Part shown: positions 5,423 through 43,591 of the stretch, in pieces | How positions within the stretch are numbered: the stretch's first letter is position 1 | Layout: each line of letters begins with the position of its first letter | DNA from: Candidatus Methanophagales archaeon | GTDB lineage: Archaea > Halobacteriota > Syntropharchaeia > Alkanophagales > Methanospirareceae | Assembly: GCA_025966525.1 (NCBI GenBank) | Contig: JAPDIG010000002.1 | Location: forward strand, 1 to 52,563 | Length of the DNA stretch: 52,563 bases | Reading direction: 5' to 3' | Translations under genes and position numbers: made by a program | Notes under the pieces: generated by a model | Databases searched by the model: none | What the model saw: the letters and a program-made list of their open reading frames with translations, nothing else | Told to the model about the DNA's origin: nothing

Positions 5423-5680
5423 TCACTCCCCTGAAGTCGCATATATTTCATAAGGCATTATCTTCTTATTTACCTTTTTCTTCCCTTTCAACTTACTTAC
5501 GAGGTCGGCGGCTTTCTCCTTCTTCTCGCGCTTCTTCAACCGCTCCAATATAGTTGCCATCTCTTTTTCTTTCTCTGCACCGCCGTATTCCTTCTCTTCC
5601 TCTTTTACATATCCCTCTTCCTCTTCTATTTCCTCTTCTTCCCCTTCCATTCCTTCAAAAACCATTACATCCACAACCAC
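5423..5680 (-). CDS. Small, highly charged protein ending in SGE; candidate Pup-like modifier
   Basis: 85-aa ORF with a GTG start at 5680, preceded by GGGGG about 10 nt upstream; an alternative ATG lies at 5665. The N-terminal half is Glu-rich, the centre is Lys-rich, and the C-terminus is MPYEIYATSGE followed by the stop. It sits 68 nt downstream of the second Pup-ligase-family gene on the same strand. It is low-complexity, so coding status rests mainly on context. Confidence 0.45.
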   Translation of the reverse strand: MVVDVMVFEGMEGEEEEIEEEEGYVKEEEKEYGGAEKEKEMATILERLKKREKKEKAADLVSKLKGKKKVNKKIMPYEIYATSGE

Positions 5681-5748
5681 TTTGACTCAACCCCCTTATT
5701 ATCTTTTATTTTTTTTTTTGATCAAACTTTCTTCTAAAGTAAGTTTGT

Positions 5749-7329
5749 TTAATAAATTATCTTGTCAGGATATAACCCTTTTGCTGCCGATAAAATCTCC
5801 TCTATTTCTCTTCCCTCTGTCATTTCCGCCCACATTTCTTCCTTATTCAACATGAACGGTTCGTCCAGCATTATTTTCGCCTCATTAAGCACCATCGTTG
5901 ACCAGCTTACACTCTTCACATGCGGCCCATACCTTTTCAACAGCTCAGCTTTGAAAAATTCTCTCGTTTGCTCCGGTGCATTACTCAGCGCGTATTTCAC
6001 TCTATCCGGTAGGGAAGACCAATCAACTTGCGGCAATTCCCGCTTTGCGAATGTCAGCGACTCCTTCGGATTGAAAAGGCAACTGCCTTTCAGACTTTCC
6101 TCTCCATCCCCGAGGTAATACATCACACTTTCATCCAACAATGCATATTGGTTACAGATGCTTATTCCTTCGGAAGCGCTTTTCGGCTCGTAATTCACAA
6201 GCAATGCCAATTTCGTCACCCAGTCTATCCCATCCACGCATTCTTCCACATGCCGAGCTTCCAGCTTCTTTATCACTTCCTTTAAACATTTTCTCCCTAT
6301 TCTATCCCATTTCCCTTCTACTCCCTTCTCTTCGTACATCTTCTCTATTGCTTCGAGATAAAATAGTAGAATGGAAACAGCGTCTGTCCTACTGCCGTCC
6401 TTCAACTTTATCTTCCACTCGCATTCCTGCGTATCCAGTGATATTTTCTTGAACGCACTCACCGGGTCTTCTATCTCCGGAGCGTCATCCAGGAACCCCA
6501 ATTCAAATGCACAAATTACCATTGCTTGCGCAATATCACGCAAGAAAATTGCGTATTCAGAACGAAGTGCTTCGTAATGTATATCGTGCAGTCGCCAGTA
6601 TTTGCGTGCAGCATGAGGTTGGTCTCTCGTGTTTAAGATACCCCTGCTAACGGTGGTGGAAAGAGAAGATTTTTGAACAACAAACATCGCTCTTGGCGAA
6701 ATAACGAACTTCACGCCCTCTTTTCCAATGGTCTTCCCAGAAACGACATCGCCTGACCCAGTGAACAATATCCTTGTAACAACCCAGGGTATTAGCGCTT
6801 TTTCTACACGACTCCAATCCTCACACGCTTCCCTTTTTGTTATTATATTCCCGTGCGTGGCGTATGTATTGGTATTTACTTTTTCCCCTTTTCCTATGTG
6901 TACGCCACTGCTAACAGCGCGACTGAAAAAATTGGCGACATTATTTTTATGAATAGCTACTTTTTTTTTCAAAGCCCGGCTCGCCTCTTTTGAGCCTATA
7001 AAAGCGTATATCTCCGATGCTTTATCGTATGCCACGGCATCAAAGGGGTTATTGTAAGAAGGCGTGGATATTTCAAGATGTCCCATATCGTTGTAAATCC
7101 GGCAGCCATTCTCACCAAACGAAGACGCGATTCTCGCTTCGTGCGCTTCCTGTGATACTTCGGTGGCGGTGTCCCACTTCACATCGTGTGAAAATCGTCT
7201 TCTTTTTAAACCCTGAATCGCGGCGTTAACGAGCAAGGATGGATTTAAACCCGCTTTTGCAGTCACTGGATATTCCTGCTCCACCCCTCTTATCTTATTC
7301 TCCGTCCCTTCCCCAACTCCCTTCCTCAT
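5749..7329 (-). CDS. Pup-ligase/deamidase family protein (PafA/Dop-like), paralogue B
   Basis: 526-aa ORF. Its blocks match PafA motifs as I recall them: GVEQEY (GIETEF), ENGCRIYNDMGHLEISTP ([20 protein letters not shown]), LIPWVVTRILFTGSGDV (LPFLVTRQLICGAGKV) and ILNTRDQPHAARKYWRLHDI (INTRDEPHADAEKYRRLH). Confidence 0.85.
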   Translation of the reverse strand: MRKGVGEGTENKIRGVEQEYPVTAKAGLNPSLLVNAAIQGLKRRRFSHDVKWDTATEVSQEAHEARIASSFGENGCRIYNDMGHLEISTPSYNNPFDAVAYDKASEIYAFIGSKEASRALKKKVAIHKNNVANFFSRAVSSGVHIGKGEKVNTNTYATHGNIITKREACEDWSRVEKALIPWVVTRILFTGSGDVVSGKTIGKEGVKFVISPRAMFVVQKSSLSTTVSRGILNTRDQPHAARKYWRLHDIHYEALRSEYAIFLRDIAQAMVICAFELGFLDDAPEIEDPVSAFKKISLDTQECEWKIKLKDGSRTDAVSILLFYLEAIEKMYEEKGVEGKWDRIGRKCLKEVIKKLEARHVEECVDGIDWVTKLALLVNYEPKSASEGISICNQYALLDESVMYYLGDGEESLKGSCLFNPKESLTFAKRELPQVDWSSLPDRVKYALSNAPEQTREFFKAELLKRYGPHVKSVSWSTMVLNEAKIMLDEPFMLNKEEMWAEMTEGREIEEILSAAKGLYPDKIIY

Positions 7330-7336
7330 TATGCCA

Positions 7337-9145
7337 TTATATCTCTTCTTCCTCTTCCTTACACCTCTTCTCCGCCCTGCTTATCTCTTCTATCTGATCC
7401 GTTATCCTGTCCTCATCCCATCCATCCAGTTCATCAAATCTATAAGTTTTGTTATTAGAATACAGCAAATAGTCCAAATAAGGATTCCTGACGATTCTGT
7501 TTCTTATTTCACGGCTTATCTCCTCCTCCCAGCCCCTTATGTCCTCTTCCTCCGCCAGAAGTCGCACAAGAACTTGCCTTGTCGCTTCGCCCCTTCTCCT
7601 CTCACGTAAAAACACCACCACTGCACTCGGCATCCTCGCAAGTTCCGGATACCTTTCAAATAGCCTTGAATATTCCTCACCACTTGGTCTGCCCATGTCT
7701 ATCTTTATCTTTGGCTCCCTGTTTATCGTTATCTTATTCCAGCTTAGTGCAGCATTATCAAATTCTGATGCGAGTCTTACCCTCAGCTCTGCTCTGGAAT
7801 TCTTTGGAGGAAATAACAACGCTTCTCCTATCTCCTCTTCTGTTAGTACTCGCTCCGCCCCTATCCTATCCGCTACGCGCTCGTATAGGTCATAATTACA
7901 AAGATTGGTGAAATCAAACGAAGCTGCTATCTCTTTCTCCACTTGCTCATCCATCATGTAGATGCTCCGGTAATCAAATTTACCCTTTGATGTGTATTCA
8001 TATTCAAAATCATCTATTTCATTCTTTATCACCCATAACTTCATCACCCATTCCAGACGCCGCATCACGTATGGGTCCTCAAGCAATCCCTGCCTGAACT
8101 TATCACAAAGCCTCTTAAACGTATCCAAAACATATTTGTCCCAGTAAGATGTCTCTCGTTCCTCAAACAACTCCTCTATTACCGCAAGATAACCCGCCTC
8201 AAGGTAATCAATCGCTAACTCAGTCCTCCCATTTGTTAACTTTATCCGCCAATCACCTTCGGTATTCGTCGAGATGTCTTTAAATGTTTGAAGTGGATTC
8301 CAGATGTCATCTACATGCGAGAGCTTACCGGTTTCTATTGCGTCCAATACATAGGATGTAAGTGCATTATTGAGCAGCCGTGTAACCTCAGAGCGAACAC
8401 CCTCACCTGATGTAATATGCACACGGTATTTATCTTTTGTACTCAACGGCTCGTCACGTGTCGATAATATCGGCCACTGTGAAGGTGATTCAGTGAGAAC
8501 CCGCTTCGAAACCATCGCTTTCGGTGAAATCACATATTTCAACCCTTCTTTCTCTGCTATAAATCCGCCAGCGCCAAAGAATATCTTCCGAAGTACTAAA
8601 AATGGTATGAGCAAATTCTCTTTACCCACAAATTTCCTCCTCTCTACCAGGTATGATTCGTGCGTGCCCCTGCTATATCTCTTGTCTATCTCCACATTTG
8701 CTTTCCAGCATTGGATGTATGTGGTGTCATTCCCTCTTTTCCTTAACTTCTTCCTGTATCTTTCGTTTGCTTTTTCCACTCCTATCTGCATGTATAACTC
8801 TGCCGCTTTATCATATTTCAGCACCTCAAAGGCGTTTCTGCATTCAGGCGTGGCTATCTCCAGGTGACCGCCGGTGCAGATGTAAATCCGAGAGCCATTT
8901 CTCAAAAAGCCATCGTTCCTCCTCCGCAACTTCGAGCATATCGCGTCCGTTCCATCAAAAAAAGTATAATTCTCAAGCGCACGAATCACTTCATCTACAT
9001 GATAAAATCTCGCATATCTGTACAAGCCGGGCGATTCTGAACTTATGCCGACTCTAAATTCGTGCTCCAACCCTTGCCATTTGTTCAAATCGTCCCCCAT
9101 TTTTTTAAAAATGCATTCCTGTTTCTTCTTCTGGCATTCCCTCAT
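7337..9145 (-). CDS. Pup-ligase/deamidase family protein (PafA/Dop-like), paralogue A
   Basis: 602-aa ORF with blocks GLEHEF, RNGSRIYICTGGHLEIATPEC, GTHESYL, LIPFLVLRKIFFGAGGF and ILSTRDEPLSTKDKYRVHI. The first ATG (9145) overlaps the upstream ATPase gene by 41 nt. An internal ATG at 9100 (MGDDLNKW) would begin 4 nt after the ATPase stop codon and may be the true start. Confidence 0.85.
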   Translation of the reverse strand: MRECQKKKQECIFKKMGDDLNKWQGLEHEFRVGISSESPGLYRYARFYHVDEVIRALENYTFFDGTDAICSKLRRRNDGFLRNGSRIYICTGGHLEIATPECRNAFEVLKYDKAAELYMQIGVEKANERYRKKLRKRGNDTTYIQCWKANVEIDKRYSRGTHESYLVERRKFVGKENLLIPFLVLRKIFFGAGGFIAEKEGLKYVISPKAMVSKRVLTESPSQWPILSTRDEPLSTKDKYRVHITSGEGVRSEVTRLLNNALTSYVLDAIETGKLSHVDDIWNPLQTFKDISTNTEGDWRIKLTNGRTELAIDYLEAGYLAVIEELFEERETSYWDKYVLDTFKRLCDKFRQGLLEDPYVMRRLEWVMKLWVIKNEIDDFEYEYTSKGKFDYRSIYMMDEQVEKEIAASFDFTNLCNYDLYERVADRIGAERVLTEEEIGEALLFPPKNSRAELRVRLASEFDNAALSWNKITINREPKIKIDMGRPSGEEYSRLFERYPELARMPSAVVVFLRERRRGEATRQVLVRLLAEEEDIRGWEEEISREIRNRIVRNPYLDYLLYSNNKTYRFDELDGWDEDRITDQIEEISRAEKRCKEEEEEI

Positions 9146-10739
9146 ACCCTGATGCTAATATCTCCTCTGCTCTTCGCTGCACAAACTTGTCAAAACCTTC
9201 TTTCAGGTGCCTCATGTTCACTCCTATTTCTTCTACGCGTTTGTACCGCTTCTGCAGTTCTTCCGTCTTGCTTCCTGCATCCAATATCGCTGCGATTCCC
9301 TCCTTATCCCACATCCTCCTCATATCCTCGTTGTTGATAATTCCTTTTTTAAGCATCAGCAATGTCCTCTCCTCTAACGCCTTGTCCCTCGCATAGTTGA
9401 ATATCTGCGCTATAAACCTCCCGGTTATCGTATCTGCTCTCTTTATCCTCCCTATTTCTGTCTCAACGTACTTATCACTGTACATGTAGCCAATAATCTC
9501 CTTCACCAGATGTGACCTCGCCTCTTCTTCTCCTCCTTCTTCCTTTATCAGGTAGTGGTCAATAGGAATTTTTTTAGCATAGAGCGAGGCAATGGAAGAC
9601 GCAGCTTCCTTATCCGGCTTTGGAACCTCAATTATCTTGTCAAATCTCGCTCTGAATGCGGAATCTATGAGGTACAATCTGTTCGTTGCTCCTACCACCG
9701 TAAGGTGTGGATGCAGAGCATGGAAACCTTCCAACAGGTCCAGCAGTTGCCCGGTGACTCTCTCTGGTGCTCCGGAAGAGCCAGTGTACATGCCCCTTTC
9801 CTGTGCTAACGCATCTATCTCGTCAAAGAAGATTACACCATAGTCATTTTCTCCTTCTTCTAATTTAGCGTTCGCTGCCTCAAACACCATCCGTACATTC
9901 TTCTCTGATTCCCCAAGCCACATGCTGAAAAGTTCCCCCGCGCCTACCTTCACAAATTCACAGTTTGGTAGTGCAGATGCCAATGCCTTTGCACACATCG
10001 TTTTACCGCAGCCTGGAGGACCATACATTAATATTCTCCGAGAACATTCTCCATATTTTGTGTAATCATCAGGGTTTATCATCGGAAGAATAATACTCTT
10101 TATCAATTCCTGTTTTATCTCCTTTAAACCGCCTATGTCATTAAAGCTCACCCCTGGATTCTTTGTGACTTCGTAGCGGGAGAGTTCTTTTGCCTTGTAA
10201 CACTTCTTTATGTCAAACGTGCCTGGAAGAAGCCCCACTTTCATCCCCTCTTTTACCATTTCCTTTTCTTCTTCGCTTAGCCTTTTGTAGAGCCTGCCGC
10301 GTCCTTTCCCGGTTGATATTTCTCCGACCCAGCCCTCGTCGTCCTTCCTTAACTCCTCTATCTCTCCCACCTCTAAATCTACCATCCTATCATACACCTT
10401 TGTGATGCCTATGGTAAATCCACTGGGGTTATTTCTGTCGGGGATGCGTCCGATGAACACATATTTGCCTTCTTTCAGCTCTTCTATTTCTTTCCCGGTA
10501 AGCGTCCCGTAGGGTAAAGCCTTTAATGCACCATTCAAATTCACAATAGCACCTTCTTCAGTCTTTTCTACTACGAATCCACAGTCCAAAGGTGGCGACC
10601 TCGATTTTGATACAAGTTTCTCCAAATCCGCTTTATACGCTTCCGTCTCCTCGTATTTCCTCATCAACCGTCGGTAGTCGCTCTCTAACCGTTCATACTC
10701 GTATCTTGGAATATAGTCTCCTCTTTCTTCCATTTTCAA
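9105..10739 (-). CDS. AAA+ ATPase with coiled-coil and OB-like N-domain (Mpa/ARC-like proteasomal-type unfoldase)
   Basis: 544-aa ORF with an N-terminal heptad-rich helix (YEYERLESDYRRLMRKYEETEAYKADLEKLVSK) followed by beta-rich segments. It has Walker A GPPGCGKT, Walker B VIFFDEIDAL, pore-loop-like MWLG and sensor VVGATNR. A long helical C-terminal extension resembles the Mpa post-AAA region. The likely true start is the ATG at 10733, preceded by GGGGA; the ORF track begins at a TTG at 10739. Confidence 0.85.
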   Translation of the reverse strand: MKMEERGDYIPRYEYERLESDYRRLMRKYEETEAYKADLEKLVSKSRSPPLDCGFVVEKTEEGAIVNLNGALKALPYGTLTGKEIEELKEGKYVFIGRIPDRNNPSGFTIGITKVYDRMVDLEVGEIEELRKDDEGWVGEISTGKGRGRLYKRLSEEEKEMVKEGMKVGLLPGTFDIKKCYKAKELSRYEVTKNPGVSFNDIGGLKEIKQELIKSIILPMINPDDYTKYGECSRRILMYGPPGCGKTMCAKALASALPNCEFVKVGAGELFSMWLGESEKNVRMVFEAANAKLEEGENDYGVIFFDEIDALAQERGMYTGSSGAPERVTGQLLDLLEGFHALHPHLTVVGATNRLYLIDSAFRARFDKIIEVPKPDKEAASSIASLYAKKIPIDHYLIKEEGGEEEARSHLVKEIIGYMYSDKYVETEIGRIKRADTITGRFIAQIFNYARDKALEERTLLMLKKGIINNEDMRRMWDKEGIAAILDAGSKTEELQKRYKRVEEIGVNMRHLKEGFDKFVQRRAEEILASGYEGMPEEETGMHF

Positions 10740-10832
10740 TCCCCTTTAATAGATAAGAATTGATTTTATAAAAATGCATTGCCCCGCCATTGTTTTTATA
10801 TAATTATATTTACAATATATAGTTATAGAAAG
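10740..10832. promoter_or_regulatory. Divergent intergenic region with two TATA-like boxes
   Basis: ttttataaaaa at 10764-10774 is about 30-40 nt upstream of the ATPase ATG on the minus strand. tttttatataatta at 10794-10807 is about 30 nt upstream of the phoU-like ATG at 10833. No experimental TSS is available. Confidence 0.35.
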
Positions 10833-11897
10833 ATGAAAGAGGAGAAGAGGAAAATACAACTTACGGGAGGTTCTACACTCACCATATCGCTTCCTATAAA
10901 GTGGGCAAGAGAAGCGGGCATAAAGCAGGGAGATGAACTGTCTTTAATCCAACGTGCGGATCATTCTCTCCTCGTCATACCGGAGAAGGAGGAAGGAGAG
11001 CAGATAAAATCTGCGGAACTCGAACTCTCAGAGCTCGAAAGCTTTGAGGACAACTTCAGGTATCTTATCGCTCATTACCTCGTTGGATATGACCTTATAA
11101 AGCTTTTATCACCCAGTGGCTTCGGGGCTGAAGAAAGAAAGCGGATAAAGGAGGAGGTGAGGAAGAGGCTGATAGGCATGGAGGTTGTTGGAGAGTCGTC
11201 AAAGGAAATAGTACTCCAAAGCTTTTTGAAATACGAAGATTTTACACTGAGAGATGCGATACGGAGTATGTCTGAGATAATATTGTCAATGCATGGAGAT
11301 GCGATTTCCGCACTTGAAAAAGGCGATCTAAATCTTGCGGAGGATGTTATAGAGCGTGATAACGAGATAGACCGATTTTATTTGCTTATCGTAAGACAGC
11401 TAAAGGCTGCGATGAGCGATCCCGAACTTGCAAAGAAGATAGGTGTGGGCAGGCAGCGCGATAGCCTGGGATACCGAATAATAGTGAAGAGCATGGAGAG
11501 AATAGGCGACCATGTGGAGAACATAGCGAAAAATTCCATTCTGATGAATCCCGAAAGTCATGCATCTGTACATGCACCTGTATCTTTAGGGACTCAAAGC
11601 CTGGAGGGCATAAAAGAGATCGGCTTTCGTACTGAACACATCTTCACCAAGACCCTGGCTTCCTTATCAAACATGGATATGAAAGAGGCGAATGAGACGA
11701 TAAGGGATGCGAATGCGCTGATAGATACGTTAGAGGGAATAAATGAGCGAGTTTTGGCAGAAGAGCTGAGTATTACGGATAAAATACATGTTCTTTCTAT
11801 CCTTGAGAGTTTGGGAAGAATAGCGAAGTATTGCGCTGATATAGCCGAGGTAACGATAAATATGGGGACGTGGATAGCGGGGGAACTGGAATTTTAG
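10833..11897 (+). CDS. phoU: Phosphate uptake regulator (AbrB/SpoVT-type N-domain plus PhoU repeats)
   Basis: The ORF track begins at 10779, but MKEEKRKIQLTGGSTLTISLPIKWARE (a SpoVT/AbrB swapped-hairpin motif) starts at the ATG at 10833. Two PhoU-like helical repeats follow (DNEIDRFY..., ERIGDHVENIA / GRIAKYCADIAE). Confidence 0.8.
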   Translation: MKEEKRKIQLTGGSTLTISLPIKWAREAGIKQGDELSLIQRADHSLLVIPEKEEGEQIKSAELELSELESFEDNFRYLIAHYLVGYDLIKLLSPSGFGAEERKRIKEEVRKRLIGMEVVGESSKEIVLQSFLKYEDFTLRDAIRSMSEIILSMHGDAISALEKGDLNLAEDVIERDNEIDRFYLLIVRQLKAAMSDPELAKKIGVGRQRDSLGYRIIVKSMERIGDHVENIAKNSILMNPESHASVHAPVSLGTQSLEGIKEIGFRTEHIFTKTLASLSNMDMKEANETIRDANALIDTLEGINERVLAEELSITDKIHVLSILESLGRIAKYCADIAEVTINMGTWIAGELEF

Positions 11898-14841: not shown

Positions 14842-16032
14842 CTAACGTCTACACTTTGCAAGAAATACAACCACCGCAATAGCAATCACTGCGAATATCA
14901 GTTCGAAACCTGGTGGCTTTGGTGTAGGTGCAGGTGTTTCCGCTGGTGTAGGTGCAGGTGTTTCCGCTGGTATTTCTACTGCTAAGACCCTGTTAATCGT
15001 CTCTTGTGGTATAAAAGAGCCACCTTCACCGAGTATCTCTCCTTCACAACCTTTACAGAGCACTTCTGGGTTTTCATGGCACTCTGCGCATTCCTTTGCC
15101 TTATCTGTAACTGTATGCGGGAACCATGCACCATACCCTGTGTGTGTCGCATTGTCATAAGCAGCAGTCATGTTCATGAACGGTTTTATCTTACCATCAG
15201 CACCGATAGCAAGATGGAAATCGTCAATCACTACTTTCGTTCCCTTTCTGGTATCTAAGTGGCAGTTTACACATTTTGGTGCCCATCCCGTGTGACATGC
15301 AGTACAGTCGAGTTTATCACCGTGTATCTTATGCGCACTTACATCTGGTGAATACTGTGTCACCGGCATTCCCTTGACCGTCTTTCCAGGGCTTTTGTGG
15401 CAATCCTCGCATGACGTCTTGACCGCCTCAAGCTGGCTGGCTACTGCTTCCCCTGAACCATGCATATCTTCCGCGGTATGGCAGTCCGTGCACGTAAGCC
15501 CCTTCTCATAGTGAATATCCGCGGGGTGTGCTACTTCGGCTCCTTCTATCGGAATCTTGCCATGTGCTGGAATCTCCCCTACAAAGGTTGAAGTTTGTTT
15601 CTTGAAGTGGCACTGGTCACATGTCGGCATATTCTTGCTCAAATCTTCCTTATGCGGGTCTTCTCCATGGCACTTTTCGCAGGTGGTAGCATGGCATTTG
15701 GAACAGTTCCACTTCGCATAATACTCATCCATATCAATTCCGAAATGCTTTGCCGCATACTTCTCGTATTCGCCCTTCATCCCCGCGCCGGTGTAATGTA
15801 GCGAAGTCGTAAAGTTTTCAATAACACCAGAATGACAGCTACAACCTCCGAACTCTTCCCCCGCCGCAATCGCTACGCTCACCAGTGATACTGATAACAC
15901 TACGAAAATCATCAAAGGCAATATCTTCTTTACTATCTTCGCTATTGTAGATTTACAAGGGTCTGCGTATCCTGCATTTCCATCTGTTTTTGGCATTTTC
16001 TTCTCCTCCCTAACAAATATCCAGTATTTCAA
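14842..16032 (-). CDS. Multihaem c-type cytochrome with PGF-CTERM archaeal sorting signal
   Basis: 396-aa ORF; the start may be the ATG at 15996 (MPKTDG). It has an N-terminal signal-anchor and eight CxxCH motifs (CSKCH, CEKCH, CDQCH, CTDCH, CEDCH, CTACH, CVNCH, CAECH) plus one CSCH. The C-terminus is a Thr/Pro linker (AETPAPTPAETPAPTP), then KPPGFELIFAVIAIAVVVFLAKCRR (PGF motif, TM helix, basic tail). Confidence 0.85.
   Translation of the reverse strand: MKYWIFVREEKKMPKTDGNAGYADPCKSTIAKIVKKILPLMIFVVLSVSLVSVAIAAGEEFGGCSCHSGVIENFTTSLHYTGAGMKGEYEKYAAKHFGIDMDEYYAKWNCSKCHATTCEKCHGEDPHKEDLSKNMPTCDQCHFKKQTSTFVGEIPAHGKIPIEGAEVAHPADIHYEKGLTCTDCHTAEDMHGSGEAVASQLEAVKTSCEDCHKSPGKTVKGMPVTQYSPDVSAHKIHGDKLDCTACHTGWAPKCVNCHLDTRKGTKVVIDDFHLAIGADGKIKPFMNMTAAYDNATHTGYGAWFPHTVTDKAKECAECHENPEVLCKGCEGEILGEGGSFIPQETINRVLAVEIPAETPAPTPAETPAPTPKPPGFELIFAVIAIAVVVFLAKCRR
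14921..14968. repeat. Perfect 24-nt tandem duplication inside the cytochrome linker
   Basis: ggtgtaggtgcaggtgtttccgct occurs twice back to back (14921-14944 and 14945-14968). It encodes AETPAPTP twice on the minus strand. Confidence 0.9.
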
Positions 16033-16180: not shown

Positions 16181-17614
16181 CTAACTCGGTAATCCCGCTT
16201 TTTCAAGTTCTTTTGTTATTTCTCCTCTGATGTTCACTGATAGTATTTTATTCTTTTGCCCCGGGATTCCCAGTGGTAGCATCACTTCTCTTCCTGGACT
16301 ACAAGCCCAACATGCCGCATTAGCGTCTAAAACCTCGCCACTTGTATTAAGTAACTGTACATAGAAGACATTGCCGGAAGGCATTATGCCCAAATATGGA
16401 ACCGGAATGCTGAAATTAAATGTACTATTATACCCCGCTGGTACCGGCACTGAGGTTACTGTTGGAACCCAAATGGTATACTGTGGGATTCCCCAGTAAC
16501 ATTGGAACGTTACGTTTTTCTGAGTTGGATTTGTGATGCTGATGGTAATTGTCATCGTGTCACCCGGCGAGTATTTGAATTTATCTGTGGCGACTGTGAC
16601 TGTTGGTTTACGTTTATGAGCACCGATTATCCTATCTATTACTTCTTGTGGAATAAAAGAACCACCTTCGCCAAGTATCTCTCCTTCACAGCCTTTGCAG
16701 AGCACTTCTGGATTTTCATGGCAGTCTGCGCATTCCTTTGCCTTATCTGTAACTGTATGTGGGAACCATGCACCATACCCTGTGTGTGTCGCATTGTTAT
16801 AAGCAGAAGTCATGTTTATGAACGGTTTTATCTTACCATCAGCACCGATAGCAAGATGGAAATCATCAATCACTACTTTCGTTCCCTTCCTGGTGTCTAA
16901 GTGACAGTTTACACATTTTGGTGCCCATCCTGTGTGACATGCAGCACAGTCAAGTTTATCCCCGTGTATTCTGTGCGACTGCGTATCGTTTGAATACTGA
17001 GTCACCGGCATGCCCTTGACCGTCTTTCCAGGTTTTTTGTGGCAATCCTCACACGATATACTCACTGCTTCAAGCATCGTGCTATATTCAACACCCGTAC
17101 CGTGCATATCTTCCGCGGTATGGCACTCTGTGCATGTAAGCCCCTTCTGGTAGTGGATATCCGCCGGATGTGGTACTTCGGGTCCTTCTATCGGAACCTT
17201 GCCATGTGCTGGAGTCTCCCCAATAAAGATCGAGGTCTGTTTCTTAAAGTGGCACTGGTCGCATGTCGTCATATTCTTACTCAAATCTTCCATAACATGC
17301 GGGAACTGATATCCTATATGGCACTTTTCGCAGGTGGTAGCATGGCATTTGGAACAGTTCCACTTCGCATAATACTCATCCATATCAATTCCGAAATGCT
17401 TTGCCGCATACTTCTCGTATTCGCCCTTCATCCCCGCGCCGGTGTAATGGAGCGAAGTCGTAAAATTATCGGCAATCTCTCTATGACACATCGCACAACT
17501 TCCGAAGTCTTCCGCTACTATCGATACATTAGCCAACAAAATGGAAAGCACTGCAACTATCATCACTGGCAATATTTTCTTTACCAATATTCTACACTTT
17601 TTTCGCATTTTCAC
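16181..17614 (-). CDS. Multihaem c-type cytochrome with C-terminal Ig-like domain
   Basis: 477-aa ORF with an N-terminal signal-anchor and nine CxxCH motifs (CAMCH, CSKCH, CEKCH, CDQCH, CTECH, CEDCH, CAACH, CVNCH, CADCH). The haem domain is a close paralogue of 14842-16032. The C-terminal ~130 aa resemble the C-terminus of the ORF at 105-1028. Confidence 0.85.
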   Translation of the reverse strand: MKMRKKCRILVKKILPVMIVAVLSILLANVSIVAEDFGSCAMCHREIADNFTTSLHYTGAGMKGEYEKYAAKHFGIDMDEYYAKWNCSKCHATTCEKCHIGYQFPHVMEDLSKNMTTCDQCHFKKQTSIFIGETPAHGKVPIEGPEVPHPADIHYQKGLTCTECHTAEDMHGTGVEYSTMLEAVSISCEDCHKKPGKTVKGMPVTQYSNDTQSHRIHGDKLDCAACHTGWAPKCVNCHLDTRKGTKVVIDDFHLAIGADGKIKPFINMTSAYNNATHTGYGAWFPHTVTDKAKECADCHENPEVLCKGCEGEILGEGGSFIPQEVIDRIIGAHKRKPTVTVATDKFKYSPGDTMTITISITNPTQKNVTFQCYWGIPQYTIWVPTVTSVPVPAGYNSTFNFSIPVPYLGIMPSGNVFYVQLLNTSGEVLDANAACWACSPGREVMLPLGIPGQKNKILSVNIRGEITKELEKAGLPS

Positions 17615-17815: not shown

Positions 17816-19000
17816 ATGATCCGTATAACACAGCTTGTTCATGGAAAAGGGACCGTCAGCGAAGCACTAAAGCATAGAAAAAAGCCTCCGCATCAGGTCC
17901 CAAGCAGGCTACTGGCATTTGCCGAAACACGCAGACCCGTGATTTTCTGGAACATCACGAATAGATGTAACTTAGCATGTGCTCATTGCTATATTAGTGC
18001 CAGACCTGAATTGGATGATAGAGAAGAGTTATCATTGGAAGAGGCGAAAGCCTTCATCGCCGACCTCGCGGAGATAAGAGTCCCGTTACTTCTCTTCACC
18101 GGCGGTGAACCACTGGTAAGAAAAGATTTCTGGGAACTCGCTGAATACGCAACTGAAAAAGGGTTGAAAACTGCACTGAGCACCAATGGCACGTTGATAA
18201 CAGAGGAAGTTGCATCAAAAATAAAGGCGCGCGGAATTGAGTACGTAGGTGTGTCGCTGGACGGTGCTAAGGAGGAAACGCATGATGCCATTAGAAATCA
18301 GCCTGGGTGCTTTAAACGCGCGGTGCAAGCGTTGAGGAACTGTGCGGAAATCGGGCTTAAAGCCGGCATCCGAGTTACCATTACGAGGGACAATTATCAA
18401 GAAATAACGGACTTACTTGACCTTGCGATTGAATTAAAAGTGCCGCGGTTTTGCCTTTACTGGCTCGTTCCGAGCGGAAGAGGGAAAGAGATTTATAACC
18501 TGCAATTAGAGCCGCAAGAAGTTGCTCATATCTTTGATTTGTTATATCGAAGAGCAAGGGATTTGAACCCTGAAGAAATGGAAATTCTCACTGTTGATGC
18601 ACCACAAGACGGTATTTATCTGCTGAATAAATTAAAAGGAGATAATAGCCAGGAATACGAAAATGCACTTAAACTACTGCAATATACTGGAGATTCATGT
18701 AGTGCCGGTGACCGCGTCGCGAACGTTGACCCGGCGGGTAATGTTTATCCCTGTCAGTTCGCTCAGTTAGAAGAGTTTAAAATCGGGAATGTCCGAGAAA
18801 GAAAATTCAGTGAACTCTGGAATGATTCTGAAAACCCCGTCCTTGCGGCATTCCGGGAAAAGACGAAATTCTTGAAGGGAAAGTGTGGTTCCTGCGTTTA
18901 CAAAGACTTATGCGGTGGGGGATGCAGGATAAGGGCATACGCAGAGTATGAAGATATATGGGCGGAAGACCCGCTGTGTTCTTTTAATCCTGATAGCTGA
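17816..19000 (+). CDS. Radical SAM/SPASM-domain protein, NirJ/AhbC/AhbD-like (possible alternative haem-biosynthesis enzyme)
   Basis: 394-aa ORF with the canonical cluster ITNRCNLACAHCY, a GGEPL motif and a C-terminal SPASM-type cysteine pattern (CSAG..., CQF, CGSCVYKDLCGGGCRIRA). The AhbD-type assignment is from overall pattern and context next to the cytochrome genes and is not verified. Confidence 0.65.
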   Translation: MIRITQLVHGKGTVSEALKHRKKPPHQVPSRLLAFAETRRPVIFWNITNRCNLACAHCYISARPELDDREELSLEEAKAFIADLAEIRVPLLLFTGGEPLVRKDFWELAEYATEKGLKTALSTNGTLITEEVASKIKARGIEYVGVSLDGAKEETHDAIRNQPGCFKRAVQALRNCAEIGLKAGIRVTITRDNYQEITDLLDLAIELKVPRFCLYWLVPSGRGKEIYNLQLEPQEVAHIFDLLYRRARDLNPEEMEILTVDAPQDGIYLLNKLKGDNSQEYENALKLLQYTGDSCSAGDRVANVDPAGNVYPCQFAQLEEFKIGNVRERKFSELWNDSENPVLAAFREKTKFLKGKCGSCVYKDLCGGGCRIRAYAEYEDIWAEDPLCSFNPDS

Positions 19001-26133: not shown

Positions 26134-29100
26134 TTGTTCAGCACGATGAAAACAGCAGTTTCCAAAATACGCAAAAGAGATGGTCGAGTTGTAGAATTCG
26201 AGCATGAGAAAATCACAAACGCCATTTACAAAGCGCTGGTTAGTGTTGGCATAGAAGAAGAAGGCAGAGAGCAAGAGCTTGCAAAAGAGCTAACTGAAAA
26301 GGTGGTGTTTGAACTTGAAAAGTCGTTTGCCGCAAGAGCCAGAATTCCATCAGTTGAAGATGTGCAGGATGTAGTAGAGCATGTGCTGATCGCAGAAGGA
26401 TTTAGCGAAGTTGCGAAAGCGTATATTTTATATCGCCAGCAGCGTGCAGATATTCGCGGTCTAAAGAAATTTATAGGTGTTACGGATGATTTAAAGCTTT
26501 CATTGAATGCCGTAGAGGTATTGAAAAGAAGATACCTGTTAAAGAACGAACTCGGAGAAGTCATCGAGACCCCAGGTCAAATGTTCGAGCGTGTGGCAAA
26601 AGCAATAGCACGAGCGGAATTGAATTATGGTAAAAGCAAAGGCGAGGCAAAGGAAATTGAACGCAGATTTTACCTGCTAATGCGTGATTTAGAATTCCTG
26701 CCCAACAGTCCTACATTAATGAATGCAGGAACAGAACTCGGGCAGCTCGCTGCTTGTTTCGTTCTACCAGTTGAGGATTCGATAGAAGGTATATTTGGTG
26801 CGGTTAAGAACATGGCGAAGATTCACCAAAGCGGCGGTGGAACCGGATTCTCTTTCTCAAGGCTGAGACCAAAGGGAGATGTGGTAAAGTCAACAGGGGG
26901 AATCGCCTCAGGTCCCGTCTCTTTCATGCGTGTTTTTGACGTTGCCACGGATGTAATCAAGCAAGGAGGCAAGAGAAGAGGCGCGAATATGGGCATATTG
27001 AACGTCGAACACCCAGACATTCTGGAATTTATAAGAGCGAAAGCTCGAGGAGGATTTGCCAATTTCAATATCTCCGTAGCTGTTACTGATGAATTCATGC
27101 GTGCAGTGGAGAGAAACGATGAATATGGGCTCATAAATCCCCGCACGAAAGAAGAAGTGAGAAAAATCAATGCGAGAGAAGTTTTTAACGAGATTGTAAC
27201 CTATGCATGGAAGACGGGAGACCCAGGGATCGTTTTTATGGATGAGATAAATCGCTGTAATCCTATTCCCGCGATTGGGAAGATAGAGGCAACTAATCCG
27301 TGCGTAACCGCTGATACATGGGTAATGACTGCTGAGGGTCCGAGACAGGTTGAAGAATTAATTGGTAAAAAGTTTACTGCAATTGTAAACGGCGAGAAAT
27401 GGGAGAGTTCAGGAGAAGGATTCTTTGAGACCGGGGTGAAACCAGTTTACAGATTGAAGACCGCAGAAGGATTTGAATTGCATCTGACGGTAGATCACCC
27501 GGTTATGAGAGTGGAGAGAAAGACAAGATATAAAATTGTGACGCAATGGAGCAATGCAGGGGATTTGAAGCCCGGCGATAAAATTATCATCAACAATCAC
27601 AGAGATTTTGGTAATTGGAACGTTAAGGGCAAATATACGGAATCTGAAGGCTATTTAATGGGTTTGCTCTTAGGAGATGGTACGATTAAAAAATTAAATT
27701 CTGGGCTGAAGGCAATTAGCAATAAAATGGAGAAAGCATCTGTGGATTTCTGCGGAGGTCTGCTAAGAGGGTTATTTGATGCAGATGGCTCGGTTCAAGG
27801 AAATCAATCGAAAGGTGTTAGTGTAAGACTGGCTCAGAGCGATATTGAGATTCTCAAGTCGGTTCAGCGTATGCTTTTACGATTTGGAATATTCTCGAGG
27901 ATTTATATGAATAGGAGAGGAGAAAGGAAGGTGAAAATGCCCGATGGGAAAGGGGGGATAAAAGAGTATATTACAAAACCTCAGCACGAATTGGTAATTT
28001 CCAAAGAGAACATATTGTATTTCGCTGAAAGGGTTGGATTTGATGATTCAGAGAAAATGGAAAAACTTGAAAAGGCTATATGGAATTACAAACGGAAAAT
28101 GAATCGAGAGCGGTTTGTAGCATCCGTAGAGGAAGTAGTTCCAGAGGGCATAGAAAAGGTTTATGATGTTCAAATTCCGGGAATAAATGCTTTTGATGCG
28201 AATGGATTCTATGTGCATAATTGTGGTGAGCAGCCACTCTTACCGTACGATTCATGCAATTTAGGCTCGATAAATGTTTCAAAATTTGTCAAAAACGGGG
28301 GGAGCAGCGAAATAGACTGGGAAAGGCTTAGAGAGGTAATCTGGATTTCTGTGAGGTTTTTAGATGATGTCATAGATGTGAACAGGTATCCATTGCCTGA
28401 GATAGAGCACATGACAAAAGCGAACAGAGGGATAGGGCTTGGAATAATGGGATTTGCAGAACTGTTAATCAAGCTTGGGATTGCGTATGATTCAAAGGAT
28501 GCACTTTCGCTGGGTGAAAAGCTAATGCGATTCATTACAAATGAAGCGCGGCAGTGTTCAGCACAGCTCGGGCTCGAAAGAGGGTCTTTTCCCAACTTCG
28601 AACTCAGCATTTGGAACGCTAAATACGAAGCAATGCGAAATGCCACGGTAACCACCATCGCACCAACGGGAACAATAAGTATAATTGCGAGCTGCTCCAG
28701 TGGAATAGAGCCTATATTCGCTGTTGCATTTGTTCGGAACGTAATGGGAGGAATGCTGGAGATAAACAAGTTGTTTGAGGATATAGCGAAGGAAAAGGGC
28801 TTTTACAGCAAAGATTTGATCGCGGAGATTGCAAAATGCGGCTCAATACAGGATATTGAAGGAATCCCAGAAGATATTAAAAGGATATTTGTTACTGCGC
28901 TTGACATCTCGCCGGAATGGCATGTGCGAATGCAAGCAGCATTTCAGAAATATACGGACAATGCGACATCAAAAACAGTGAATCTGCCGAGCGATGTAAC
29001 GTGGGGCAATGTAAAAAAGGTGTTTTTATTGGCTTACAAGCTTAAGTGTAAGGGTATTACTGTTTACCGATATGGAAGTAAAGAGCAGGTTCTGTCGCTG

Positions 29101-29181
29101 GATATTCCAAAACTCATGCTTGAGGAGTATGTATGCGCTGATTCGGAATACACAGGCGAGTGCAGGATATGTTCGGTATAA
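26134..29181 (+). CDS. nrdJ: Adenosylcobalamin-dependent (class II) ribonucleotide reductase with ATP-cone, interrupted by an intein
   Basis: 1015-aa ORF with an N-terminal ATP-cone (KIRKRDGRVVEFEHEKITNAIYKA). RNR blocks include FLPNSPTLMNAG, ACFVLPVEDS and SGGGTGFSFSRLRP. The finger-loop motif TNP/CGEQ is split by the intein. C-terminal redox cysteines are present (CADSEYTGECRICS). The start could be Met5 (MKTAVSK). Confidence 0.9.
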   Translation: MFSTMKTAVSKIRKRDGRVVEFEHEKITNAIYKALVSVGIEEEGREQELAKELTEKVVFELEKSFAARARIPSVEDVQDVVEHVLIAEGFSEVAKAYILYRQQRADIRGLKKFIGVTDDLKLSLNAVEVLKRRYLLKNELGEVIETPGQMFERVAKAIARAELNYGKSKGEAKEIERRFYLLMRDLEFLPNSPTLMNAGTELGQLAACFVLPVEDSIEGIFGAVKNMAKIHQSGGGTGFSFSRLRPKGDVVKSTGGIASGPVSFMRVFDVATDVIKQGGKRRGANMGILNVEHPDILEFIRAKARGGFANFNISVAVTDEFMRAVERNDEYGLINPRTKEEVRKINAREVFNEIVTYAWKTGDPGIVFMDEINRCNPIPAIGKIEATNPCVTADTWVMTAEGPRQVEELIGKKFTAIVNGEKWESSGEGFFETGVKPVYRLKTAEGFELHLTVDHPVMRVERKTRYKIVTQWSNAGDLKPGDKIIINNHRDFGNWNVKGKYTESEGYLMGLLLGDGTIKKLNSGLKAISNKMEKASVDFCGGLLRGLFDADGSVQGNQSKGVSVRLAQSDIEILKSVQRMLLRFGIFSRIYMNRRGERKVKMPDGKGGIKEYITKPQHELVISKENILYFAERVGFDDSEKMEKLEKAIWNYKRKMNRERFVASVEEVVPEGIEKVYDVQIPGINAFDANGFYVHNCGEQPLLPYDSCNLGSINVSKFVKNGGSSEIDWERLREVIWISVRFLDDVIDVNRYPLPEIEHMTKANRGIGLGIMGFAELLIKLGIAYDSKDALSLGEKLMRFITNEARQCSAQLGLERGSFPNFELSIWNAKYEAMRNATVTTIAPTGTISIIASCSSGIEPIFAVAFVRNVMGGMLEINKLFEDIAKEKGFYSKDLIAEIAKCGSIQDIEGIPEDIKRIFVTALDISPEWHVRMQAAFQKYTDNATSKTVNLPSDVTWGNVKKVFLLAYKLKCKGITVYRYGSKEQVLSLDIPKLMLEEYVCADSEYTGECRICSV
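27301..28221 (+). mobile_element. Intein (307 aa) in the RNR finger loop, with a degenerate LAGLIDADG endonuclease domain
   Basis: It starts with Cys (CVTADTWV, block A) and has block B LTVDHPVM. LAGLIDADG-like motifs are YLMGLLLGDGT and LLRGLFDADGS, only about 35 aa apart. Blocks F/G are VYDVQIPGINAFDANGFYVHN, followed by the +1 Cys of CGEQ. Confidence 0.85.
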
Positions 29182-31197: not shown

Positions 31198-32684
31198 TCA
31201 TTTTTCAATGCAGAGGTAAGGGTCCACCCATTGCGACCAGAACTGAACCGGATTCTTAACTGGCACCATTTCTTCATTGTCCGGGCTGAACAACTCGCTG
31301 TTGTAAAACACGAATCCTTCTTTCATTTGATGTTCTAAATTGCTCTTCAATATTCCTTCCATAATTTCTTTTTCAATTGCTCCTGCATATTGCAGAATTC
31401 TTATCAGATAAGGTGTATCTCTCGGCCAGACCACCGCCTCATGATATTCCTCATCTCCATAATAAGTCTTCTTAGAAGATTTCTTCACCAATATCCCAAA
31501 TGGTAAGCCATTCTTTTCCATTAACAAATTCTCCTTCACGTCTTTGATGAATTCTTTCAATTCATGGTGAGAAAAGATATCCTCATCGAGGAGCAAAGAG
31601 AATGCGACTACTGTCGGTGACCCTGGCGTCTTATCTCTTTTGCCTTTCACCGTTACGAGATTGTAGAAAATATTCTCTTCAGAATTCCAGAATATAGTTT
31701 TGAAGTTTTTACGCACTTTTTCTAATAATGCGAAATACTCATCTTTTTTGTTCTCGTTCTCAGAAGACATCATCACACAATGACTCAACATTTTTATCCA
31801 TTTCGCATTTAGCTCAGGCAAGAAATACTTTGGCTTATTCAGTTCGTTCTCCCCTAAATCACACCATGAGTCTGGTATCCGTATCGAGACTTTCACTCTT
31901 TTCCCTTCTATTTCTATATCTCGCTTCGTATCGGTCCACGAATGCCAGGGAACAGCAGAAATAAGTCCGTTTTCGTTCAGCACTGGTGCACCATTTACCT
32001 TTTCCAAATCGTTCATTTTGAATCGAGCGATGGTGAACTCCGCCCTTTCCAAAATTGTACTCGCAAAATCATCGTCCCAGAGCCAAGTTTATACCACCAT
32101 TCGTTTTTCTTTTTCCATGTTCTGACCTCGCATTTTTTCACCGTTCTAATCGAAATATATTTTTCATCGCGCCAGATAAGCATTCCATCGTGTATAGCCT
32201 TGCAAAAGTGTCCCTCAGGTGCAGACTCATCGTACATGTGTCTTATATCCACGATTGGCTCGATTATAATCGAAGATGCATTGCTTTCGAGCGAGACGCA
32301 GGCACTGATGCTGTTTTGCCTTGCTCCAATATCCATGAGATAGTAGGTCACAGCGAGATTTAATTTCTCTTCTTCGTTTTCGTAATAATAAATCATTTTC
32401 CATGGAAAAGCGGTTACGAGCTTTGCTCTTAGCTTAATATACCGCGACCCTTTCTTCGCACCCACTGCTATTCCATCGAGGAAATGGAAATTCTCACCTT
32501 CTATCAAGACAGATAAACCTTCATAGGGGTAATCACGATTAGGAATGATTTTTTCTATTGAATCACCAAAGGGGACGGAGAAAACCGACTGAGACCATGA
32601 AGCCTGCATTCGCTTAACTATGACATGTCGTGTAAATGCGGGATTTATGTCCTCTATCGGTTGAAGGTCAACGCTTAAGTTCAT
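31198..32684 (-). pseudogene. Glycogen-debranching-enzyme-like (amylo-alpha-1,6-glucosidase family) gene split by a frameshift
   Basis: Two overlapping ORFs lie in different frames: 32013-32684 (223 aa) and 31198-32052 (284 aa). The downstream frame is already open upstream of its TTG start (TWLWDDDFASTILERAEF...). The upstream frame ends 13 codons later. This is consistent with a single indel near 32085-32095. The C-terminal part has EEYHEAVVWPRDTPYL, reminiscent of the six-hairpin glycosidase motif of GDE_C proteins. The family call is tentative. Confidence 0.45.
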
Positions 32685-32725
32685 AGGAATTTTTTTTGGC
32701 TAAATTTTTTGCTTGCAAAAAGTTT

Positions 32726-43574: not shown

Positions 43575-43591
43575 AGCCGTAAAAGTATAAG

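Follow-up and report, generated by a model that had tools for sequence, protein, structure and literature searches.

A preliminary description of a 52,563-nucleotide stretch of Candidatus Methanophagales DNA (contig JAPDIG010000002.1, positions 1 to 52,563; here, the window) had likened four of its genes to the core of an actinobacterial pupylation locus. Examination of the minus strand between positions 5423 and 10739 confirmed four co-directional, tightly packed open reading frames (ORFs) in the order ATPase, PL1, PL2 and SM, separated by gaps of ~0, 7 and 68 nt. The four genes are the following.

9105-10739, minus strand: Mpa-like AAA+ unfoldase, 544 residues as listed from a TTG codon; the ATG at 10733 is the probable start.
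7337-9145, minus strand: PL1, a paralogue of the Pup-ligase family in which the catalytic loop is of the PafA type, 587 residues from the probable start at 9100.
5749-7329, minus strand: PL2, a Dop-type paralogue, 526 residues.
5423-5680, minus strand: SM, the candidate modifier, 85 residues; its start codon may be the GTG at 5680 or an ATG downstream of it.

The start of PL1 at the Met codon at 9100 follows database entries, one of them from the same contig. The motifs quoted in the preliminary description were all found, namely, GPPGCGKT, FFDEID and MWLG in the ATPase and the ligase blocks GxExE[FY], NGxRxY...HxE..TPE, LIPF/WxVxR..F.G.G and [NS]TRD.P....Y.R.H in the two paralogues.

Two paralogues of the PafA/Dop family

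PL1 and PL2 matched the Pfam Pup_ligase model (PF03136; gathering cut-off, 25) at 200.8 and 226.9 bits, respectively, in agreement with the family assignment initially proposed, and the only solved structures matched by the two sequences were those of Dop and PafA. The comparison with NCBIfam suggested at the same time was borne out in part: the PafA, Dop and Mpa models matched, but all three large proteins of the operon scored far below the equivalog cut-offs, which for the ligase family are 551.3 (PafA, TIGR03686) and 492.3 (Dop, TIGR03688).

PL2 was closer to Dop than to PafA, both in NCBIfam (200.4 versus 140.0 bits) and in a profile search of the PDB (206 versus 132 bits; E value of the Dop match, 7e-60). 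Its catalytic set is complete (E17, E19, R77, Y79, D81, E86, H159, R213, R235 and H248), and in every lineage PL2 keeps the GhExE motif together with R90, Y92, D94, E99, H155, R205, R227 and H241 in the numbering of Acidothermus Dop, the roles of these residues being taken from PMC8599861 and PMC7947786. The GhExE motif is GVEQEY in the window, and the catalytic Asp, D81, is invariant or nearly so. The catalytic loop, Y-N-D-M-G-H-L-E, has the Dop spacing, with no insertion after the Asp, and its D-M-G segment also occurs in bacterial Dop-type proteins. PL2 further carries the Dop-type S-T-P motif and a short insert resembling the Dop loop, in which the conserved W52 aligns with W47 of Dop; this insert is shorter than in bacteria, the spacing between GxExE and NGxR being 59 residues versus mostly 60 to 110.

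PL1 was nearly tied between the two NCBIfam models (PafA, 160.5 bits; Dop, 155.6 bits). Its AlphaFold2 (AF2) model (pTM, 0.80) matched Dop and PafA structures at E values of 1e-26 to 1e-28 with template modeling (TM) scores of 0.62 to 0.80, whereas the next matches with a glutamine synthetase (GS) fold, YbdK/GCS2, were obtained at 1e-6, 20 orders of magnitude behind, which ruled out that PL1 is an unrelated GS-fold ligase. The ATP-binding GhExE motif, kept in all clades, is GLEHEF in PL1. The catalytic loop, Y-I-C-T-G-G-H-L-E, has Cys75 at the place of the catalytic Asp (D94 of Dop, D64 of PafA), and its C-T-G-G segment equals the bacterial PafA-type D-T-G-x loop except for this Asp-to-Cys replacement. 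PL1 of anaerobic methanotrophic archaea of group 1 (ANME-1) also shows the PafA-specific one-residue insertion after the Asp position and the PafA-type Ala in the motif EIATPE; this insertion is missing from the PL1 of Bathyarchaeia and is longer in that of Methanomethylicia. The protein ends in a C-terminal extension of ~110 residues.

The active-site residues of PL1 differ from one lineage to another. In ANME-1 and relatives, D94 is replaced by C and R205 by K (Acidothermus Dop numbering). Methanomethylicia PL1 keeps the Asp, has I for R227 and Q for H241, and has lost the His of DxxHxE. Bathyarchaeia PL1 has V for R90 and H for D94. In the Halobacteriota clade, PL1 proteins as little as 45% identical all have Cys75 and the same nucleotide and metal ligands.

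Two side observations concern the cysteines of PL1 and its relatives. C75, C87 and C131 are invariant across Halobacteriota PL1, and all three are located in or beside strands of the active-site sheet. A solitary PL1-like paralogue (P0373, 495 residues, ~50% identical to PL1), present at two loci (L080, 7001-8488; L081, 5714-7201) between two GH57 glycoside-hydrolase genes, likewise carries a Cys where the catalytic Asp would be; genes for a tag, PL2 or the ATPase were not found near it at these loci. A related cluster, formed at 50% identity, has members labeled Methanophagales.

The small Gly-Glu-terminated protein

SM consists of 85 residues and terminates in YATSGE, within the C-terminal sequence KKIMPYEIYATSGE. 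Its N-terminal half is acidic and variable, with 18 Asp or Glu residues versus 4 Lys or Arg residues, and its C-terminal half is basic and almost invariant (LVSKLKGKKKVNKKIMPYEIYATSGE). The remnant that trypsin is predicted to leave of the C terminus comprises 12 residues, IMPYEIYATSGE. Comparison of 44 distinct orthologous DNA sequences over the last 45 codons revealed purifying selection (pS, 0.64; pN, 0.073; pN/pS, 0.11), and the pN/pS ratio fell to 0.035 for the last 20 codons. SM is a real, constrained gene. The preliminary description of the last gene as encoding an 85-residue charged protein ending in Gly-Glu was correct, with a G-[EQ] terminus, a neighbor belonging to the ligase family and the signature of purifying selection.

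The Halobacteriota proteins, 73 to 123 residues in length as called, with uncertain start codons, end in TSGE (44 sequences), TAGE (3 sequences) or TSGQ (1 sequence). In Thermoproteota, the corresponding ORFs are tiny (27 to 40 residues, e.g., MSEVVLPSFKRKERVDKKLKKEHSEVVAPPGE) and end in PPGE (10 sequences) or PPGQ (1 sequence). The C-terminal pattern E-[IV]-[YV]-A-x-x-G-E is common to both phyla. The residue preceding G-[EQ] is Ser, Ala or Pro, not Gly as in the GG[EQ] terminus of Pup. The variants ending in Gly-Gln parallel the Gln/Glu dichotomy of Pup.

According to Iyer et al. (2008), Pup proteins have 50 to 90 residues, a G-[EQ] C terminus and a bihelical core followed by an extended tail, and the pup gene invariably adjoins a gene of the PafA family. 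SM has this terminus and this adjacency but, in sequence, matches no Pup family model. The SM gene lies directly downstream of PL2 at 46 of the 54 assessable loci of Syntrophoarchaeia and at all 13 assessable loci of Thermoproteota.

An ATPase with the architecture of Mpa

In the AF2 model of the ATPase (mean pLDDT, 78.7), a long helix (residues 12 to 46) precedes a β-rich region of ~140 residues (52 to 193), the strand pattern of which is consistent with two oligonucleotide/oligosaccharide-binding (OB)-type barrels. Next come one AAA module and, at the C terminus, an extended helical region. A Foldseek search of the PDB with this model returned M. tuberculosis Mpa as all of the top 30 matches, with ~500 aligned columns and E values of ~3e-24, whereas Cdc48 and Rpt aligned over only ~350 columns corresponding to the AAA part. 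TM scores against Mpa were moderate (0.46/0.54) because the arrangement of the domains is flexible. The structural comparison thus upheld the earlier view that the ATPase is nearer to Mpa than to PAN, since its top matches were Mpa rather than PAN, Cdc48 or Rpt subunits. The NCBIfam models for PAN, CdvC, Mpa and Cdc48 gave about equal scores, all below threshold: 142 to 167 bits for PAN and Cdc48, far under the family cut-offs, and 156.2 bits over residues 18 to 457 for the Mpa/ARC equivalog TIGR03689, which has a cut-off of 504.75. Full-length sequence relatives of the ATPase were restricted to Syntrophoarchaeia and a few other Halobacteriota.

The C terminus of the ATPase is conserved as E[ED]TGMH[FY], and G-M-H-[FY] is the terminus in the window and in every orthologue from ANME-1, Syntrophoarchaeum and Alkanophaga; the GQYL/GxYx docking motif was not found at the C terminus of any of these proteins. 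The cluster-linked orthologue of a more divergent archaeal lineage (locus L082) ends in PFYV, a canonical hydrophobic-Tyr-X (HbYX) motif. Remoter relatives end in AYF or FYV, and two of them, P0465 and P0466, do not adjoin PL genes.

At the locus of P0465 (L078, 1926-7038), this protein, ~41% identical to the ATPase, is followed by three tandem copies of a gene pair encoding proteins of ~434 to 437 and ~117 to 128 residues, none of which had a Pfam match.

Distribution in two archaeal phyla

We scanned one genome per species with an 11-sequence alignment and archaeal-specific patterns, which identified 73 loci. The scan gave no bacterial loci, its patterns being specific for archaea, and bacterial relatives were drawn from an exhaustive profile search. 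About 60 of the 73 loci belong to ANME-1/Methanophagales, Syntrophoarchaeum, Alkanophaga and Methanoxibalbensis, with PL2 proteins 58 to 90% identical. A second group comprises Bathyarchaeia and Methanomethylicia, in which identity of PL2 is 33 to 39%.

The four-gene synteny, the conservation of which had been proposed for verification, follows the same order across the loci of Syntrophoarchaeia, in about 50 species-level genomes of ANME-1, Syntrophoarchaeum and Alkanophaga: PL1 is upstream of PL2 in 55 of 57 assessable loci, and the ATPase gene is upstream of PL1 in 49 of 50. Locus L082 has the same four genes, followed by an M42 peptidase gene, in the neighborhood of methanogenesis-type and archaeal information-processing genes. 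The Thermoproteota version consists of PL1, PL2 and the 27- to 40-residue peptide only; its conserved neighbors are 2-oxoacid:ferredoxin oxidoreductase genes, and no dedicated ATPase or protease gene was found nearby. Three loci are reduced, to PL2 alone (L011), to PL2 plus SM in a different genomic context (L013), and to an ATPase cut after residue 295 with intact PL2 and SM but no PL1 (L032, 1839-4428). These could be real deletions or assembly errors in metagenome-assembled genomes (MAGs). The operon is native to archaea and has been inherited across the whole class.

The M42 (TET-type) aminopeptidase gene of L082 (7843-8892) lies directly after the tag gene; this is a single case and may be a coincidence.

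Evolutionary relations of the paralogues

The exhaustive profile search recovered 3,645 family members, among which the archaeal PL2 clade stood apart at the top of the ranking, with ~20 representatives at 50% identity that all scored 317 bits or more; the next score was 241. Profile-profile alignment with hhalign across the two phyla gave scores of ~600 for PL1 and ~840 for PL2, indicating that each of the two proteins is orthologous between the two archaeal phyla. PL2 scored 515 to 525 against bacterial Dop-type, 422 to 428 against PafA-type and 248 to 385 against PL1 profiles. PL1 of the ANME-1 class scored 371 against PafA-type and 343 against Dop-type profiles, and PL1 of Thermoproteota scored 450 and 497, respectively. 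On these sequence criteria, PL2 is robustly assigned to the Dop type, and the affiliation of PL1 between PafA and Dop is ambiguous.

A neighbor-joining tree grouped the archaeal PL2 proteins with a bootstrap value of 64 and the bacterial Dop and PafA proteins together with a value of 61, PL1 being placed outside (69). This topology conflicts with the loop signatures and with the hidden Markov model (HMM) and hhalign scores, which associate PL2 with Dop and, weakly, PL1 with PafA; the tree is rough, with a long branch for PL1 and few PafA references. It is clear that the archaeal genes were not acquired recently from Actinobacteria, and also that PL1 and PL2 are both old and that the pair predates its spread across the two phyla. 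A speculative reading, which we consider improbable, is that archaea were the birthplace of the Mpa-like ATPase and of a PafA/Dop pair and that these passed to Actinobacteria together with the proteasome.

Proposed function and division of labor

With moderate confidence, we propose that the operon encodes a native archaeal tagging system of the Pup type, rather than of the ubiquitin or SAMP type, in which PL2 would be the catalytic engine, PL1 an accessory subunit and the ATPase an unfoldase. Homology, architecture, conservation, selection and residue states are observed; we infer from them conjugation, the attribution of its steps to one or the other paralogue, and delivery to the proteasome. 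In the proposed scheme, the small dipolar SM would be the tag. An enzyme of the PafA/Dop family would use ATP-Mg to phosphorylate the side-chain carboxylate of the C-terminal Glu of SM, and the amine of a lysine in the target protein would resolve the acyl-phosphate, with formation of an isopeptide bond. The existence of rare Gln-ending forms of SM implies a deamidation step, which would precede ligation of these forms. PL2 would catalyze ligation, deamidation and probably removal of the tag. PL1 would probably still bind nucleotide, SM or both and may serve in the recruitment of substrates or of the ATPase, or in regulation. In the Halobacteriota version only, the Mpa-like ATPase would recognize the tag through its N-terminal helix, thread the disordered acidic N terminus of SM and unfold the tagged proteins, probably for the 20S proteasome.

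PL2 is likely to be the engine because it alone keeps the full active site in all lineages, because it survives in the reduced loci, and because the PafA/Dop family is mechanistically bidirectional. Loci devoid of PL1 still keep PL2 and, where this could be assessed (L013 and L032), SM. Twenty substitutions make Dop a ligase, the ancestor of the family having probably been a ligase with a Dop-like side activity (PMC7947786), and PafA can move Pup between substrates (PMC5358908).

Several observations weigh against this proposal. Bacterial Dop does not ligate, and PL2 is of the Dop type. In ANME-1, PL1 is more conserved than PL2, with invariant ligands and an invariant Cys75, a pattern more expected of an active than of an inactive enzyme. 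The helix-prone region of SM is basic versus acidic in Pup, its terminus is S-G-E or P-G-E rather than G-G-[EQ], and four representatives of SM matched no Pfam or NCBIfam model even at E ≤ 10. SM is not adjacent to PL2 at 8 of the 54 Syntrophoarchaeia loci, among them those of the Alkanophaga genomes and of three Arctic-vent clades of ANME-1. The distance of the three large proteins from the equivalog cut-offs and the ATPase-free clusters of Thermoproteota belong to the same category, as do three observations on the proteasome: the ANME-1 ATPase tail has a His where HbYX and GQYL have the penultimate Tyr; no Pfam proteasome match was obtained among the 30 largest ORFs of the window that were scanned; and a tblastn search of 1.06 Mb of related loci (83 sequences) detected no 20S α or β genes, a negative of only moderate strength.

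The coupling of the operon to the proteasome is accordingly uncertain. It is favored by the Mpa architecture, by the PFYV and AYF/FYV termini of the L082 orthologue and of the distant relatives, and by the near-invariance of the ANME-1 tail, which implies a docking partner. Another possibility, less probable than the proposal itself, is that tagging occurs but is not a signal for degradation by 20S, the tag instead regulating its targets, or the ATPase only disassembling or unfolding them or serving another protease. A tail without the penultimate Tyr, the absence of proteasome genes from the 83 sequences, the Thermoproteota version without a dedicated ATPase and the M42 peptidase gene following SM in L082 are compatible with such an output, and bacterial Pup systems without linked proteasome genes are known in Plesiocystis and Rhodopirellula (Iyer et al., 2008). 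Against it stand the same architecture and docking arguments that favor the coupling, with a canonical HbYX in a cluster-linked orthologue, and the fact that all archaea encode 20S proteasomes (PMC12288473).

In the main rival reading, the division of labor between the paralogues would be that of bacteria, with PL1 acting as the ligase in ANME-1, Cys75 serving as a base or nucleophile, and PL2 acting as a deamidase and tag remover only. We regard this as rather unlikely. It nevertheless has real weight, since neither Cys75 nor the ligands around it (GhExE, R, Y, H-E and R-x-H) vary down to 45% identity. The C-T-G-G loop with its PafA-specific insertion, which differs from D-T-G-x only by the Cys, the PafA-type Ala of EIATPE, the reciprocal HMM and hhalign comparisons that lean PL1 toward PafA and PL2 toward Dop in the ANME-1 class, and the higher conservation of PL1 all point in this direction. 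However, the Asp is treated as catalytic in both PafA and Dop (PMC7947786, Table 1), and D94 belongs to the active site of Dop (PMC8599861). In addition, PL1 can hardly be the ligase in Methanomethylicia and Bathyarchaeia because other essential residues are lost there (R227 and H241 in the former, R90 as well as D94 in the latter), and the three-gene unit nevertheless persists. L013 and L032 retain PL2 and SM without PL1, and Thermoproteota PL1 scores higher against Dop-type than against PafA-type profiles. A more speculative variant, which we consider improbable, is that the Cys of PL1 captures the γ-glutamyl phosphate of the tag as an enzyme-bound thioester; this would be a hybrid of the Pup acyl-phosphate and of the ubiquitin E1/E2 relay.

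It is very unlikely that the operon performs no protein tagging at all, SM being a precursor peptide or carrier, the C-terminal Glu of which would be ligated to a small-molecule amine or used in peptide maturation. The small size of the Thermoproteota peptides and the lack of similarity between SM and Pup would fit this idea, but the enzymes belong specifically to the PafA/Dop family, not to GCS2 or GS, Pup is recognized by just such a G-[EQ] end and location beside a gene of the family, an Mpa-like unfoldase is encoded by the same operon, and the surroundings of the cluster contain no conserved genes for transporters, proteases or other maturation functions. Assignment to a known antiphage defense system was rejected, since PADLOC returned only generic AAA matches, the context is of the housekeeping type, and no homologues were found on viral contigs.

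Finally, an artifact (chimeric assembly, contamination or insertion of bacterial DNA in the very recent past), suggested only by a few cluster-bearing public contigs labeled Desulfobacteria (L028), Patescibacteria (L067) or Nitrosotalea (L020), has a negligible probability, because the archaeal AbrB-PhoU and SRP54 neighbors recur in dozens of independent assemblies, including that of ANME-1 cluster archaeon AG-394-G06 (L039), the base composition shows no anomaly (GC of 0.443 for the operon versus 0.431 for the window, with an operon GC3 within the range of neighbors such as SRP54), an archaeal TATA element is present upstream, and the closest bacterial proteins are only ~30% identical, with the sharp fall in score from 317 to 241 bits. 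The preliminary description had likewise judged a chimera improbable. The clusters of L020, L028 and a contig labeled Bathyarchaeia (L061) are of the ANME-1 type with 73 to 80% identity to ANME-1 versions, hence mis-binned, and L067 carries a Bathyarchaeia-type version; all four contigs are almost certainly mis-binned in their MAGs.

Comparison with known tagging systems

The archaeal operon shares with the actinobacterial Pup-proteasome system (Pup, PafA, Dop, Mpa/ARC and PrcAB) two PafA/Dop paralogues encoded beside a small protein that is probably disordered and has a G-[EQ] end; rare forms of this tag end in Gln. One paralogue is of the Dop type, with the Trp of the Dop loop and the D-M-G/D-H-A loop spacing, and the other has the PafA-type insertion; an ATPase of Mpa architecture is present, here in the same operon. 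The differences are the archaeal host, an SM protein without detectable homology to Pup that has a basic helix-prone region and an SGE or PGE end, a Cys in place of the catalytic Asp in the PafA-type paralogue, the gene order ATPase-PL1-PL2-tag with no 20S genes in the locus, an ATPase tail of the GMH[FY] type instead of GQYL, and scores that fall far short of the equivalog cut-offs.

UBact systems of Gram-negative bacteria, e.g., Nitrospirae and Verrucomicrobia, were reportedly described by Lehmann and colleagues in 2017. These systems resemble the archaeal operon in being non-actinobacterial and in having a divergent small tag encoded beside PafA/Dop homologues; like SM, the UBact tag terminates in [ST]-G-E instead of G-G-E. 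They differ by their bacterial hosts, and SM, compared with them through family models only, matched none of the NCBIfam or Pfam models at E ≤ 10.

SAMPs are β-grasp proteins that are adenylated and thioester activated at their C-terminal Gly. Unlike the SAMP/Urm1 pathway, the archaeal operon encodes GS-fold ligases and a tag that is not a β-grasp protein, in which the side chain of the C-terminal Glu would be the reactive group. The likeness to SAMP/Urm1, with its E1-like UbaA, would lie in a small modifier attached to lysines and in a proposed link to the proteasome (PMC2948915 and PMC4569737), the role of SM in both respects being putative. The ATPase shares with PAN and Cdc48 a classic-clade AAA module. 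It differs from them in that PAN, Rpt and Cdc48 align over ~350 columns versus ~500 for Mpa, in that the ANME-1 tail is not an HbYX motif, and in that its relatives are confined to Syntrophoarchaeia and a few Halobacteriota.

No archaeal Pup-type system was found to be described in the searchable literature, a scope that left subscription-only papers outside, with searches combining pupylation, PafA, Dop and Pup with the archaeal groups; the preliminary description had come to the same view. The founding comparative analysis found no Pup system in archaea (Iyer et al., 2008), a family-wide phylogeny lists bacterial phyla only and never mentions archaea (PMC7947786), and a survey of archaeal ubiquitin-like proteins from 2010 only speculated on an unrelated halobacterial family (PMC2948915). 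A large comparative-genomics paper on ANME makes no mention of the proteasome, Pup or PafA, reviews of 2019, 2025 and 2026 treat pupylation as bacterial (including PMC6466877 and PMC12288473), and a whole-word search for UBact retrieved three papers, with nothing on archaea. None of the outcomes listed in the preliminary description as contradicting it (no family match, grouping with unrelated GS-fold ligases, a chimeric contig or a prior description) was encountered. Public automatic names are "proteasome accessory factor PafA2 family protein" and "Pup--protein ligase" for PL1 and PL2 and "AAA family ATPase" and "26S protease regulatory subunit" for the ATPase; homology of the two enzymes has therefore already been caught by annotation pipelines. 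The searchable literature does not describe the system as a whole, with its tag, its Mpa-like ATPase, the altered form of PL1 and its occurrence in two phyla.

If the proposed function is correct, the bacterial-only picture of pupylation, with Actinobacteria at its center, would change, and archaea would possess, beside SAMP/Urm1, a second and chemically distinct tagging route bearing on the choice of proteasome substrates. The 27- to 40-residue peptides of Thermoproteota would then be unusually short tags in comparison to the 50 to 90 residues of Pup. The presence in two archaeal phyla of deep-branching PafA/Dop paralogues, and of an Mpa-like ATPase in archaea, would make the origin of the Pup-proteasome system testable. 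A Dop-type enzyme potentially capable of ligation and a PafA-type enzyme whose catalytic position is a Cys would be natural experiments on the ligase/hydrolase switch, and reconstitution in E. coli is expected to be easy, as with Pup and PafA. The operon is carried by uncultured archaea (ANME-1, Syntrophoarchaeum, Alkanophaga, Methanomethylicia and Bathyarchaeia) that have key roles in the cycling of methane and alkanes.

Putative promoter region and flanking genes

Upstream of the operon, the window contains the following two features.

10740-10832, no strand assigned: intergenic spacer that separates the operon from the divergently transcribed AbrB-PhoU gene, read from the sequence.
10779-11897, plus strand: AbrB/MazE-PhoU regulator-like gene, divergent, with a probable start near 10833.

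The intergenic region is a putative promoter of the operon. We read in it an AT-rich, archaeal-type TATA element, TTTTTATAAAA, ~40 nt upstream of the ATG of the ATPase gene, and a purine-rich site resembling a ribosome-binding site, AAAGGGGA. The AbrB-PhoU neighbor is kept at 45 of the 48 assessable Syntrophoarchaeia loci, and its product is a possible regulator of the operon. The linkage may reflect mere synteny because the AbrB-PhoU gene is missing from the Alkanophaga and L082 versions of the locus.

The genes flanking the operon are archaeal and encode HcyBio-CBS, MscS, AbrB/MazE-PhoU, SRP54, two multiheme cytochromes and TFB. The archaeal flanks initially reported (AbrB-PhoU, SRP54, TFB and cytochromes) were thus recovered, but the PGF-CTERM signal attributed to the cytochromes is present on only one of the two. 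The multiheme c-type cytochrome genes are adjacent (14842-16032 and 16181-17614, both on the minus strand) and specify 8 and 9 CxxCH motifs; the PGF-CTERM-like anchor, PKPPGFELIFAVIAIAVVVFLAKCRR, ends only the first. A radical SAM/SPASM maturase-like gene (17816-19000) lies beside this pair.

Among the regions at 32013-33622 (minus strand), 34652-36190 (minus strand) and 42882-44284 (plus strand), ORFs of 223, 298, 512 and 230 residues had no Pfam match at E ≤ 1e-5. Two neighboring 230-residue ORFs of the window are not paralogous to each other, and the 512-residue ORF adjoins a radical SAM gene at 33603-34643. The large subunit of ribonucleotide reductase (26134-29181, plus strand, 1015 residues) is split by an intein of the LAGLIDADG homing-endonuclease type, with Pfam matches to Intein_splicing at residues 406 to 696 and to LAGLIDADG_3 at residues 541 to 635.

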